Position numbers and translations under genes: made by a program. Shown here in pieces: positions 26,124-50,894 of a stretch of 64,000 nt of DNA (the stretch's first letter is position 1; every line of letters starts with the position of its first letter). This stretch comes from a virus. The stretch is taken from IMG/VR virus record IMGVR_UViG_3300017814_000184; one strand, 5' to 3'. The notes below the pieces were generated by a model. The model was not told where the DNA came from and did no database searches. It worked only from the letters and a program-made list of their open reading frames with translations.

Positions 26124-26183
26124 AATTGACAGCTCCTTTCTATGTACGGGAGCGGGAAAGGATGAAAGCCGCTCCCGACCACG

Positions 26184-26215
26184 AAAAAAGGACTTGAGGT
26201 CGAAACCCCAAGCCC
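26184..26215 (-). terminator. Terminator-like hairpin in the metK/late-operon leader
   Basis: GGGCTTGGGGT-TTCG-ACCTCAAGTCC followed by T6, about 20 nt downstream of a TATAAT (26238-26233). Confidence 0.65.
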
Positions 26216-26447
26216 TTTATGCTTTCCTGGCAATTATAAGTATAGCGCAGGTCAAATAAAAAAACAGCTAACCAACAGGACACCTTTGGATAACCAAATT
26301 GGCAAAACCATAACCCCAGGCGAGGACAACGCGCCATAATATAGTTCTGTTAGACCAATATGTAGTTCCGCTGATTTCTGTATGTTCGCTTCTCTCATGC
26401 ATATAATTATTTTAGAACTATTATTCGTTCCAGAGGGAGGTGTAGGA

Positions 26448-26768
26448 ATGGACTTGAACGCTGTCGGCGCACGGATTAAGGCTGCAAGAGAAGCGAAGGG
26501 ATTAACGCAGGAGAAACTGGCGGAGATTATTGGAAAGAGTACGACTCATATTAGCGTTATCGAGCGTGGATGTAAGGCCCCGAAACTGGAAACCTTTGTT
26601 CAGATTGCAAACGCGCTCGACGTTTCAGCCGATTCACTTCTCCTTGATGTGGTAGACCACTCCAATCAAAGCATTGCATCCGAGTTGTCCGCCATGATTG
26701 AAAAGCGGCCCAAAAAGGAACAGCAGCGAATAATGAATGCTGTAAGGGCTTTATTAACAGAAGAATAG
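26448..26768 (+). CDS. XRE-family HTH regulator
   Basis: GARIKAAREAKGLTQEKLAE..ISVIERG; GGAGG RBS. Confidence 0.92.
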   Translation: MDLNAVGARIKAAREAKGLTQEKLAEIIGKSTTHISVIERGCKAPKLETFVQIANALDVSADSLLLDVVDHSNQSIASELSAMIEKRPKKEQQRIMNAVRALLTEE

Positions 26769-26782
26769 ACCGCATTCCGCAA

Positions 26783-26809
26783 GAAGGGCCGAAAGGCTCT
26801 TCTTTTTTT
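26783..26809 (+). terminator. Intrinsic terminator after the XRE gene
   Basis: GAAGGGCC-GAAA-GGCTCTTC followed by T7. Confidence 0.75.
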
Positions 26810-26814
26810 GCCCT

Positions 26815-26887
26815 CTCGACAAAGGTTGCCACCATTCGACAAAATCCTCACGGTATAGTAATTCTAATAGAACTATAAGAAGTTCTA
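26815..26887 (+). promoter_or_regulatory. 0A-box-like array and palindromic operator upstream of the Spo0A_C-like gene
   Basis: CTCGACA 26815, GTTGCCA 26825, TTCGACA 26835 (10 bp phasing); TAGAACT-N6-AGTTCTA 26868-26887. Confidence 0.55.
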
Positions 26888-26909
26888 AAAGAATAAAAAG
26901 GGTTTTGCA

Positions 26910-27140
26910 ATGAAAACATACGACGACATTTTTCGCCAAATAGCGAAAAAGGAAAAGACGACGGTCGAACAGGTTTATAAGGATATACAGGAGGCGATTG
27001 ACGCGGGGTTTGATAATCTCGACCCCGAAGTACGGGCGGTTTGGAAAGACATTCCGTTCAAAGGCGCTCGACCGACGCCGGAGGACGTTATTTCCTACTG
27101 CGCCTTGCGTCTCGCCCCGCCAAAAGGCTTGGCGCAATAA
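26910..27140 (+). CDS. Spo0A C-terminal (effector) domain-like protein without receiver domain
   Basis: IFRQIAKKEKTTVEQVYKDIQEAI..RPTPEDVISYCALRL aligns by eye with Spo0A IAKKFNTTASRVERAIRHAI..KPTNSEFIAMVADKL. Confidence 0.7.
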   Translation: MKTYDDIFRQIAKKEKTTVEQVYKDIQEAIDAGFDNLDPEVRAVWKDIPFKGARPTPEDVISYCALRLAPPKGLAQ

Positions 27141-27141
27141 A

Positions 27142-27173
27142 AAAGTGGTCTGTATCATAATGTGATACAGACC
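27142..27173. repeat. 32 bp palindromic element, copy 1
   Basis: GGTCTGTATCA-TAATG-TGATACAGACC perfect 11-5-11 palindrome; 30/32 identical to the reverse complement of 55185-55216. Confidence 0.9.
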
Positions 27174-27202
27174 AAATCATATACGCTTTTACGAAAACAT
27201 AG

Positions 27203-27565
27203 TCAGTTGTATTCCTCGAAGACTCCGATTTGCACCTGCAGCGCCGTCGTTATCTGCCCCATGACCTTCTTACTCGTGATTTCTCCTTTGTAGTCCAAGA
27301 GACGGTCTTTATCTAACGTCTCCACTTGCTCGGCAAGAGCAAGGCTCGTGCGGTTCAGTCCAATGCCGGCCGTGGTCGGGATAAGCACATGGGTCGGCAG
27401 CTGTGTCTTTCGGGTTTTGGAGGTCAGCGGCACAACGGTTACAACGGGCGAATGCGTATTTGCTTTATTGTTGCTGACCACCACGGCAGGGCGAGTCCCG
27501 CTCTGCTTGAAGCTGCCTATGTTGTCGCCGAAGTCCACAAAGTAGATTTCTCCTCGTTTACACAT
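27203..27565 (-). CDS. PemK/MazF-family endoribonuclease-like protein
   Basis: RGEIYFVDFG..QSGTRPAVVVSNN..VTVVPLTS..LAEQVETLDKDRL. Confidence 0.88.
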   Translation of the reverse strand: MCKRGEIYFVDFGDNIGSFKQSGTRPAVVVSNNKANTHSPVVTVVPLTSKTRKTQLPTHVLIPTTAGIGLNRTSLALAEQVETLDKDRLLDYKGEITSKKVMGQITTALQVQIGVFEEYN

Positions 27566-43883: not shown

Positions 43884-44108
43884 ATGAAAGCTGATGTTAT
43901 CACTTGTAAAAAATGCGGCGGTAAGTTTACATGGCACGAATACAATGGAGGCTACCCCGGAGGCAAGGACAGAGAAAGTGTTGACTGCCCTTACTGTGGC
44001 GAAGAGGCGTTCACCGTTGTGATAAGCGGGGTCGTTGCTGTCGAAAAGGTCGAAGAGCCTGAGACGGATGAAACCGTGGCAACAATGACCACTCTCGGTT
44101 TGCTGTGA
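43884..44108 (+). CDS. Small zinc-ribbon protein
   Basis: CKKC..CPYC; GGAGG-like RBS. Confidence 0.65.
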   Translation: MKADVITCKKCGGKFTWHEYNGGYPGGKDRESVDCPYCGEEAFTVVISGVVAVEKVEEPETDETVATMTTLGLL

Positions 44109-44148
44109 TATCAAATGATAGAACCGAAGGAAACTTATGGAGGGAACG

Positions 44149-49383: not shown

Positions 49384-50562
49384 TTATCCTCTCATTCGTT
49401 TGTTGTTGTGTGCGGCTATGCCAGCGCGCACTTCTTCCATGTTTCTTGCTTTCCACGAAGGGTCCAGTTCAAGAAAACCTTTCGTTTTTCCACGCCGCGA
49501 CCAAACCAAGGTCAGTGGGGGCGGCGGTGGTTTGACCTTGCGGCGCTGCTCAAACCTCCGGGTTTTAAGCAGTTTCTGCACTAAACGCCAGTCTGCCTCG
49601 GACACGATTGCTGGGTGATGGTCGTGCATCACATACTGCCGCTCCTGGCCGGTGTTTTTTATGGAGCGGTGAGAAAGGCAGTCCGGGGTAACCGTTTTTT
49701 GCATAAGGACATCGCCGAAGTATTTTTCATTCCGAAGAATGCAGTAGACACTACCAGGCGGCCAGGCTTTCAGCCCTTTGACCGTTGGGATGCCGAGGCT
49801 GGTGAGGCGTTCTGCAATCTCCCGGCAGTTTTCTCCGCTTATGTAGGACTCATAAATCAAGCGGACAACTTCTGCCTCATCCTCAACGATGACCATATTG
49901 CCATCTTCATCCTTGTCATATCCAAGGAGTGCCCAGGTGGGAGTAAGCGGGATGCCGCGAGAAAAGCGGTTGCGGCAAGCCCATTTTATTGCTTCGGATT
50001 TGTTCTCAGACTCGCCCTGGGCCACGGAACTCAGCAGAGCCAGCATTGCCTCTGTGTTCCGGTCGGTTGTGTTGATACCCTCGTTTTCAAAGAAAATTGC
50101 CACAGGCGGGGTGAGCTGCTTTAGTTGCCTGGCATGGGACAGGCAATCCAGCGTATTACGGGCAAAGCGGCTGATGGACTTCGTAATGATGAGGTCAATC
50201 TTGCCGGCCACGCAATCCGCTATCATGCGCTGGAACTCTTTGCGGTGCATAATGTTGGTGCCGGAGATACCCTCGTCAGCATATATATCCACAAACTCCC
50301 ATGCCGGATTCTTATGGATGAGATCGGTGTAATACTGCACCTGTAGTTCATAACTGCCAGCCTGCGCCTCTTGGTCGGTGCTGACACGGCAGTAGGCAGC
50401 AACCCGGAGTATCTTTGGCTCATCGGCGGTCAAGTCCCGTGTGGCAGGAATAACCTCCACTTCGGCACTGTCGGTATAAGCCACCTTGATTTTATCCTTG
50501 GCAGCTTTTCGCCGCTCAGCCTTGGATGCACCTTTCCACTGTGGCTTCCTTTTGTTGCTCAT
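49384..50562 (-). CDS. Large serine recombinase 3 (lacks zinc ribbon)
   Basis: AAYCRVSTD, YADEGISGT, TKSISRFARN, ILRNEKYFGD. Confidence 0.93.
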   Translation of the reverse strand: MSNKRKPQWKGASKAERRKAAKDKIKVAYTDSAEVEVIPATRDLTADEPKILRVAAYCRVSTDQEAQAGSYELQVQYYTDLIHKNPAWEFVDIYADEGISGTNIMHRKEFQRMIADCVAGKIDLIITKSISRFARNTLDCLSHARQLKQLTPPVAIFFENEGINTTDRNTEAMLALLSSVAQGESENKSEAIKWACRNRFSRGIPLTPTWALLGYDKDEDGNMVIVEDEAEVVRLIYESYISGENCREIAERLTSLGIPTVKGLKAWPPGSVYCILRNEKYFGDVLMQKTVTPDCLSHRSIKNTGQERQYVMHDHHPAIVSEADWRLVQKLLKTRRFEQRRKVKPPPPPLTLVWSRRGKTKGFLELDPSWKARNMEEVRAGIAAHNNKRMRG

Positions 50563-50894
50563 GATTTCATCACCACCCTTCCCACGACAGACCGTGCCGT
50601 GTAAGGGATTTATGCCTCCCTATGGGGCCAAAGAAGATTATAACAAGAACTACTCTTTTGCGTTAGTTGCAATTCAAAAGATAAAGCGTTGTAATAATTA
50701 TCCCGGTCGTCTTTGCGGCGAAACCAAAACGGGAGCAAGAAACGGTGGTGTTATGTTGATTTATTCGACATCATTTGCTACACTATACTTAGCTGTAAAA
50801 ATGCGATGAAATCCCGGAACACCTATAACGTTGGGAAGAATTGTAACATATATACCGCATTTGGGGCGGTTGTAAGAGGAACGGAGGAATTGGT

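Follow-up and report, generated by a model that had tools for sequence, protein, structure and literature searches.

A reduced Spo0A_C homologue, an XRE repressor and a conserved row of 0A boxes in temperate-phage DNA: a candidate cassette responding to host Spo0A~P

The virus record IMGVR_UViG_3300017814_000184 is considered here over a stretch of 64,000 nucleotides, which is referred to as the window. Within it lies a small island of two genes that encode an XRE-family repressor and a 76-amino-acid relative of the Spo0A effector domain (Spo0A_C), and a row of 0A boxes precedes the second gene. The explanation favored here, with modest confidence, is that the island is a self-contained cassette that is gated by the phosphorylated Spo0A (Spo0A~P) of the host and by its own XRE protein and that is carried as a moron by a temperate phage. 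The first-pass annotation of this DNA had suggested a circuit linking prophage state to host sporulation. Its Spo0A_C relative, its XRE gene and its box row hold up, but the likeness of the small protein to the Spo0A DNA-binding domain needs correction and the link to prophage state is unsupported. The two genes form a plus-strand pair surrounded by minus-strand phage genes only, so the two-gene island that had been noticed is confirmed:

26448-26768, plus strand: gene of an XRE-family repressor of 106 amino acids, a helix-turn-helix plus a C-terminal tail of about 40 amino acids (Pfam HTH_3, 4.7e-16)
26910-27140, plus strand: gene of the acidic 76-amino-acid Spo0A_C remnant, helices C-F

Profiles and fold show that the 76-amino-acid protein is genuinely homologous to Spo0A_C, although in reduced form, and the homology is secure at the family level. 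On its own, the protein scores 22.2 bits against Pfam Spo0A_C (PF08769; E 1.5e-4), which is under the 25-bit gathering cut-off. The match covers profile positions 39-103 of 104, so the whole six-helix domain (A-F) is not present. A profile search yielded relatives in 1148 clusters, mostly of 70-85 amino acids, and 94 of 141 relatives match Spo0A_C at E below 0.01 (best 4e-11). A shallow profile of eight sequences found no Spo0A in the PDB, whereas the 141-sequence family profile found 1fc3_A (2.2e-6) and 1lq1_A (1.1e-5) at chain residues 51-118. The AlphaFold (AF2) model has four helices and a predicted local distance difference test (pLDDT) score of 89.7. The top six Foldseek matches in the PDB are all Spo0A (1fc3, 1lq1), with template modeling (TM) scores of 0.56-0.65 and weak E-values of 0.76-3.0. 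Independently of Foldseek, VIA-align gave 1fc3_A as the sole match with Z of at least 5 (Z 6.0, root-mean-square deviation 3.3 A, 71 residues, the model being aligned on 1fc3 residues 180-258); the runner-up reached Z 4.0. The protein comprises the helix-turn-helix, helix E and the C-terminal helix F, without helices A and B. One of the retained helices corresponds to the sigma-A-contacting helix of Spo0A. As a phage-carried relative of the effector domain with no receiver in its open reading frame, it has the features of the receiver-less phage spo0A homologues. The kinship that had been suspected from the sequence is supported by the profile matches, by the wider family and by both fold comparisons, in each of which Spo0A comes first. 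PHROGs and NCBIfam contain no family for the small protein, an annotated phage collection contained two relatives only, both unannotated, and a plasmid collection contained none.

Genomes G004 and G006 (loci L034, L035, L038 and L039), which carry relatives of the small gene, contain up to five Spo0A_C matches each. Among these are open frames of 260-381 amino acids with a full-length Spo0A_C match and stand-alone domains of 132-157 amino acids with their own variant recognition helices. Judging from these matches, Spo0A_C has evidently radiated in the lineages that carry small-gene relatives.

The 76-amino-acid product is probably no longer able to read 0A boxes. The comparison set consisted of the true Spo0A proteins from four genomes carrying small-gene relatives. 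In these four proteins, the recognition helix is invariant, S(R/K)VERAIRHAIEVAW, and this invariance backs the residue-level Spo0A-DNA contacts, which we take to be those of the known domain. Both the alignment and the column counts of the family indicate that the invariant TGTCGAA-reading helix (VERAIRHAIEVAW) is not found in the window protein. Between Spo0A positions 210 and 218, the residues S, R, E, R, A, R and H are replaced by E, Q, Y, K, D, Q and E. The buried positions of the helix (V, I, A, I, A/G and an aromatic residue) are retained, and the exposed ones are rich in Glu and Asp family-wide. The isoelectric point (pI) is 5.3 for the window protein, with a family median of 6.05, compared with 9.6-9.8 for the same segment of Spo0A. 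At the R214 position, loci with identical boxes have K, R, S or Y, the deeper gut clade has N, and no residue separates box-bearing from box-less loci. The features common to the protein and Spo0A are the hydrophobic core positions, the IAKK motif and a (K/R)PT..E motif. The likeness to the Spo0A DNA-binding domain that was first noted thus stands for homology and fold, but the protein is not that domain as such: it is acidic, comprises helices C-F only and has lost the recognition residues.

These features bear on the idea that the protein is an autoregulating Spo0A mimic, which would bind the boxes, control its own gene and compete with or replace host Spo0A at the promoters of the host in a phosphorylation-free manner. 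A proposal of the same kind has been published for phage spo0A homologues (PMC10294663). The small protein is indeed a Spo0A_C homologue retaining a helix-turn-helix, its helix C IAKK motif is common to Spo0A, and its gene lies directly behind perfect 0A boxes. However, a constitutive mimic or autoregulator is made less likely, to the point of being rather improbable, because only helices C-F are present, helices A and B are missing, and other residues, some of them acidic, stand in place of the invariant ones of the recognition helix in a protein of low pI. The putative contact positions also differ between loci whose boxes are identical, and they fail to tell box-bearing from box-less loci. 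Moreover, the box row also drives ComK-like and phage membrane genes without a nearby Spo0A_C-like gene. We infer from sequence comparison that the box binder is most likely the phosphorylated Spo0A of the host rather than the small protein, because a DNA site that never changes is expected of a reader that is itself unchanging and not of a variable helix. Of the two modes first offered, sensing by host Spo0A is therefore the likelier and autoregulation the less likely one.

The row of boxes and the promoter of the small gene consist of the following elements:

26815-26821, plus strand: 0A box 1, CTCGACA, in reverse orientation, ending 32 nt before the -10; 84% mean pairwise identity over seven loci
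26825-26831, plus strand: middle element GTTGCCA, a degenerate 0A box (4/7) and/or a -35-like TTGCCA, 22 nt before the -10
26835-26841, plus strand: 0A box 2, TTCGACA (TGTCGAA on the minus strand), ending 12 nt before the -10; 100% identical over seven loci
26851-26859, plus strand: extended -10 CGG-TATAGT of the small gene; TAnnnT fits all nine aligned loci

The three box-like motifs, and the palindrome at 26868-26887 discussed below, are located where the first-pass annotation placed them. Taken by itself, the window gives the boxes no significance. It contains 11 copies of TGTCGAA in its 64 kb where 10.7 are expected, and the box-pair pattern with at most two mismatches occurs once against 0.65 expected, so the initial warning that a single 0A heptamer is common by chance was correct. 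Their significance rests on comparison among loci. The small proteins of the seven compared loci are about 40-70% identical to that of the window, with 100% identity in one locus. Across these loci both boxes are conserved, as had been anticipated, and box 1 is perfect in L001, L005, L012 and L023. Identity is 51% over the 13 nt between the boxes (38% in distant pairs) and 30% over the 9 nt that follow box 2. The conserved unit is the 7-bp core alone, exactly the 0A core TGTCGAA. Its positions G2, C4 and G5 are kept, and these bases are contacted by Spo0A in both Bacillus and Clostridioides (PMC3485338).

The distances to the TAnnnT hexamer are also fixed, at 12 nt for box 2, 22 nt for the middle element and 32 nt for box 1. 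TGn precedes the -10 in eight of the nine aligned loci; the window has CGG. Over ten promoters, the middle element agrees on average with 3.9/7 positions of the box and with 3.6/6 positions of TTGACA (p about 1e-8), and its position is occupied by a perfect TTCGACA in many ComK-type promoters. There is no -35 at normal spacing in the small-gene promoter, and the box row spans about -51 to -25. As in Spo0A-regulated promoters, consensus 0A boxes are repeated close to the core promoter with spacers of 3 bp, and this 7+3 bp phasing is a known Spo0A geometry (PMC2731898). Taken together, the sequence comparison supports the row as a conserved, phased cis-element that is functional and of the Spo0A type. 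The three boxes at 10-bp phasing that were first described are therefore retained as a degenerate form of a recurrent row, with the reservation that the middle box is weak in the window. A predicted alternative promoter, TCGACA-18-CAAAAT, was dropped because it is not conserved in relatives.

A link to genuine sporulation genes is provided by the cultured carrier of the cassette, the isolate 'Bacterium 1XD42-1' (L023), whose locus has two perfect boxes. The spoIIGA promoter of this genome contains a box of the same sequence and reverse orientation, whose end lies 22 nt ahead of TATAAT. It is in phase with the row and stands at the position of the middle element. This spacing matches the classical layout of spoIIG. 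A full Spo0A is encoded in all five of five genomes carrying relatives. These observations also bear on the possibility that the TTCGACA repeats are read by a non-Spo0A factor, either a host regulator or a special promoter element, and that their 0A identity is coincidental. The box pair is unenriched in host genomes, and the placement of the proximal box is unusual for Spo0A activation, both of which would fit such a reader. On the other hand, the repeats match the 0A core at 7/7 positions two or three times in the canonical 7+3 phasing (PMC2731898), the row precedes a Spo0A-related gene as well as ComK-like genes, and the same box is found in the same orientation and phase in the host spoIIGA promoter. 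A non-Spo0A reader is accordingly considered very unlikely.

Several observations weigh against the favored explanation. The small protein retains the helix C motif IAKK and, on helix D, several residues that are basic or polar, so DNA binding is possible. Relatives have stronger versions of box 1, the TG motif and the ribosome-binding site than the window; the last of these (26896-26909) is AAAAAGGG in the window versus AAGGAGGG in the virus record that encodes the identical protein. In five host genomes, the 20-bp box pair is unenriched, with 5 matches versus 14 for the control, and the perfect pair occurs there only at the cassette itself, so it is no general regulon motif. Finally, the proximal box lies at about -31 to -25, and we know of no Spo0A-activated promoter with a proximal box at this position.

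Single perfect 0A cores are also found in two other intergenic places in the window, namely at 44039-44045 (plus strand), about 90 bp before a gene starting at 44137, and at 50764-50770 (minus strand), in a divergent region beside a serine recombinase gene ending at 50562. In total, such cores are about as frequent as expected by chance.

The second gate would be the XRE protein. It scores 59 bits against HTH_3, for which the cut-off is 23, and it has palindromic operators at its own promoter, as is typical of the repressor family. Its orthologues, which share 52-84% identity and an invariant helix-turn-helix, are encoded in tandem ahead of the small gene. The elements that are assigned to it are:

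26343-26369, plus strand: upstream operator of the XRE promoter, half-sites AGTTCT / AGACC / AGTTCC
26402-26407, plus strand: XRE promoter -10, TATAAT, identical in three of four aligned loci and TATACT in the fourth
26413-26432, plus strand: operator TAGAAC-N8-GTTCCA over the XRE transcription start, a putative autorepression site, 33-34 nt before the ATG in six loci
26861-26894, plus strand: XRE operator array over the start site of the small gene (ATTCT, TAGAAC, GTTCTA, AGAAT)

The array contains the perfect palindrome TAGAAC-N8-GTTCTA (26868-26887), of which the site at 26413-26432 is a one-mismatch copy. These two are the only sites with at most two mismatches in the 64 kb, and each lies just downstream of a -10. 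AGAAC-N8-(G/A)TTC is found 36-40 nt before the small-gene ATG in eight of eight distinct loci with a tandem XRE. The upstream operator, in the form (A/G)GA(A/C)C-N8-CGTTC, occurs 92-96 nt before the XRE ATG in five of seven loci (the window, L001, L002, L005 and L012); L010 has only a related inverted repeat and L018 has none. The XRE promoter contains no 0A boxes. The dedicated XRE regulator with a recurring palindrome, as initially described, is thus strengthened by a co-evolving XRE and by operators shared across loci. In L022 and L024, which are also members of the small-protein family, a divergent XRE-like gene with a palindromic operator, AACCCG-N4-CGGGTT, is found in place of the boxes.

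The close association of the two genes can be read in a different way, in which the small protein is a partner of the XRE protein, an anti- or co-repressor in the SinI-SinR manner. Its Spo0A ancestry would then be merely historical, and Spo0A~P would time its production. The XRE gene and the small gene form a conserved tandem pair across deep divergence. The boxes stand on the small gene and not on the XRE gene, as is the case for B. subtilis sinI (PMC3297582), and the small protein is acidic with poor DNA-reading features. Nevertheless, neither the XRE nor the 76-amino-acid protein of the window matches the SinI model (PF08671) at E up to 0.1, and the family members in L014, L016 and L025 have no tandem XRE. 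This alternative is judged unlikely.

According to the favored explanation of a cassette gated by Spo0A~P and XRE, the XRE protein would repress its own gene through two operators of the GAAC-N8-GTTC type. It probably also represses the small gene via the same type of operator, which lies over the transcription start of that gene. Host Spo0A~P would read the box row, so the cassette would take the sporulation signal as its input, with XRE as the second gate. The most likely mode of action of the small protein is through protein contacts, either with the Spo0A pathway or with the XRE of its own cassette, which would close a feedback loop, although the choice of either target is speculative. The cues for the sign of regulation are mixed. 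The phase and orientation of the boxes are like those of the activated spoIIG promoter, and the perfect box in the core promoter together with the TG-extended -10 is like the repression of phi29/Nf A2c. By analogy, we lean slightly towards repression rather than activation by Spo0A~P. B. subtilis comK is directly targeted by Spo0A~P, and sinI carries 0A sites (PMC3297582).

The cassette is not confined to this phage. It is found in other gene neighborhoods, without pemK, in L010, L012, L018, L023 and the gut clade. Some members of the small-protein family lack both XRE and boxes. By its distribution, the cassette behaves as an autonomous module, which is a moron here, because it is present outside the gene neighborhood of this phage. 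Spo0A_C is known to be enriched on Firmicutes mobile elements (PMC6907783). Nothing was found that links the XRE gene to the lysis-lysogeny switch of this phage, and the circuit tied to prophage state that was first proposed is not borne out.

The promoter of the cassette can also be recognized without it. The pattern TTCGACA-N13-TTCGACA-N9-TGnTA was found in 9 viral contigs, versus 0 for a reversed control pattern, and in more than 120 metagenome contigs. The survey that starts from the promoter covered 69 promoters with a called downstream gene. Small Spo0A_C-like genes are located behind 22 of them, and a tandem XRE orthologue is present in 20 of 20 small-gene loci of this survey whose upstream sequence extends over 600 nt or more. 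ComK-family genes (PF06338, 3.3e-41) follow another 23/69, many with three perfect TTCGACA exactly 3 bp apart, and a phage membrane protein follows 8/69. A TM2-domain protein and a DUF4234 protein are single cases. No Spo0A_C-like protein was found in the analyzed stretches of the promoter-bearing viral contigs, which cover at most about 15 kb per contig. To our knowledge, three 0A boxes at strict 10-bp phasing have not been described to date as a recurrent class. By its sequence, the ComK-family promoter looks like a regular candidate for a Spo0A-controlled comK promoter in Clostridia.

Gut and rumen loci of the ComK family among L066-L139 (e.g., L075, L083, L086, L124:3190-3672:-) have three perfect boxes followed by TRTGnTAnnnT. 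In the viral contigs L052-L060, a promoter with two boxes and an extended -10 precedes phage genes of the membrane or moron kind, which encode TM2-domain, DUF4190-like and coiled-coil zinc-ribbon proteins.

A broader idea can be proposed tentatively, as a possibility that may well prove wrong. Gut and digester Clostridia would share a Spo0A~P-responsive promoter in which three boxes follow a strict 10-bp phase and the last of them ends 12 nt ahead of a TG-extended -10. This promoter would drive at least two regulator families, namely ComK-like genes and an XRE-gated remnant that feeds back on the decision to sporulate by protein contacts and not by reading DNA. Phages would have captured both the module and the bare promoter. 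If this is true, such capture (with membrane genes as morons) ties phage genes to the sporulation state of the host or shifts sporulation.

The window as a whole is temperate-phage DNA, encoding DNA polymerase A, a DUF2800 nuclease, a VapE-like protein (so labeled by a domain found in the gene of syntenic relatives), an endolysin and three large serine recombinases. The island is flanked on one side by genes for an SNF2 helicase, a sigma-like regulator and PemK, and on the other side by genes for an S-adenosylmethionine synthetase, an HNH protein and a ParB-methylase. The closest of the records compared is a 57.7-kb virus contig that encodes an identical small protein. Sampled words of the locus are present at 71-93% in 14 DNA runs from 11 studies of bioreactor, wastewater, sludge and landfill metagenomes. 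The evidence suggests that the hosts of the carrier phages are spore-forming Clostridia of the Oscillospirales type in the anaerobic-digester habitat. Contigs from RNA libraries cover the two island genes in part (X15, free of mismatches, at 26922-27131; X16 and X17 from 26443), but their depth is low, the minus-strand neighbors are equally covered and DNA carry-over is possible, so they carry no information on expression, start sites or strand. The remaining features of the island and its immediate neighbor are:

26781-26811, plus strand: intrinsic terminator 3' of the XRE gene, with a 10-pair stem and a T-run, retained in relatives
27146-27174, minus strand: 12-pair hairpin separating the convergent small gene and pemK, with a T-run on the minus strand only
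27203-27565, minus strand: PemK/MazF-like toxin gene, the convergent neighbor (Pfam PemK_toxin, 4e-27)

In L005, both arms of the stem of the XRE-gene terminator carry changes. The PemK/MazF-like gene (27203-27565, minus strand) has no adjoining antitoxin gene and is located 13 bp after the sigma-like late regulator. The island could in principle be its missing antitoxin, as no MazE-like gene adjoins pemK and the close clade keeps pemK and the island in synteny. However, L010, L012, L018 and the gut clade have the pair of XRE and small gene but no pemK, and the convergent orientation makes no operon. A MazEF antitoxin gene would be directly upstream in the toxin operon, where the sigma-like regulator is found instead. 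An antitoxin role of the island is therefore extremely unlikely. The pemK gene is found in L001, L002 and L005 and is missing from L010, L012 and L018; from this distribution, it is part of the synteny of the close clade and not of the cassette.

On the other side of the island, the leader of the phage metK-HNH late operon (26124-26340, minus strand) contains two strong hairpins, the first of which is followed by a U-run. The fold has a z of -3.98, with no shuffle equally stable. The leader is near-identical in L001 and L002 and may be an attenuator or an antitermination leader. Rfam gave no match anywhere in the window, the leader included.

Phage 'spo0A' genes are now read as signal-independent copies of the master switch. 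The widespread short class described here suggests the reverse wiring, in which the gene is a target of Spo0A~P. If this is true, these proteins modulate, by feedback, the entry of gut and digester Clostridia into sporulation and have been borrowed by phages, and the three-box promoter would make accessory genes under Spo0A control easy to recognize by sequence in Clostridia that are uncultured. The cultured carrier 1XD42-1 (L023) makes the idea directly testable.

Truncated, receiver-less spo0A homologues have been reported in human-gut phages, and signal-independent control of sporulation was proposed for them (Schwartz et al., mBio 2023, PMC10294663). The window protein resembles these homologues in being a phage-borne relative of the effector domain with no receiver. 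It differs in being shorter (76 amino acids, helices C-F), below the Pfam cut-off and without the recognition-helix residues. It also comes from a digester or wastewater origin and belongs to a fixed cassette with XRE and a 0A-box promoter, and the evidence points to the gene as a target of Spo0A. With the Spo0A effector domain of 1FC3 and 1LQ1 it shares the fold of helices C-F, but it has no helices A and B and is acidic, not basic. The relation to spoIIG, comK and sinI lies in boxes that coincide in part with a -35-like element, itself 22 bp away from the -10, and in the ComK-family gene behind the same row. The spoIIG spacer is 22 bp. The window promoter has, in addition, a perfect box in the spacer (about -31 to -25), and its class has a TG-extended -10. 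As in SinI-SinR, an XRE-family repressor of about 110 amino acids stands beside a small protein with 0A boxes in its own promoter; in the window, however, the two genes stand in the opposite order, neither product has a SinI-type domain, the small protein derives from Spo0A and any binding between the two would be a prediction. The phages phi29 and Nf likewise have tandem 0A boxes, 3 bp apart and overlapping the core promoter, through which host Spo0A~P sets expression (PMC2731898). Their boxes repress early lytic promoters and origins in virulent Bacillus phages (PMC2731898), whereas in the window they belong to a moron cassette in a temperate phage of Clostridia, and the same cassette is also found outside phages. 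Set against these systems, the comparison suggests that what is new here is a four-helix remnant without the reading residues, its fixed XRE partner and operator, a promoter class shared with ComK-like genes and host Spo0A as the probable reader.

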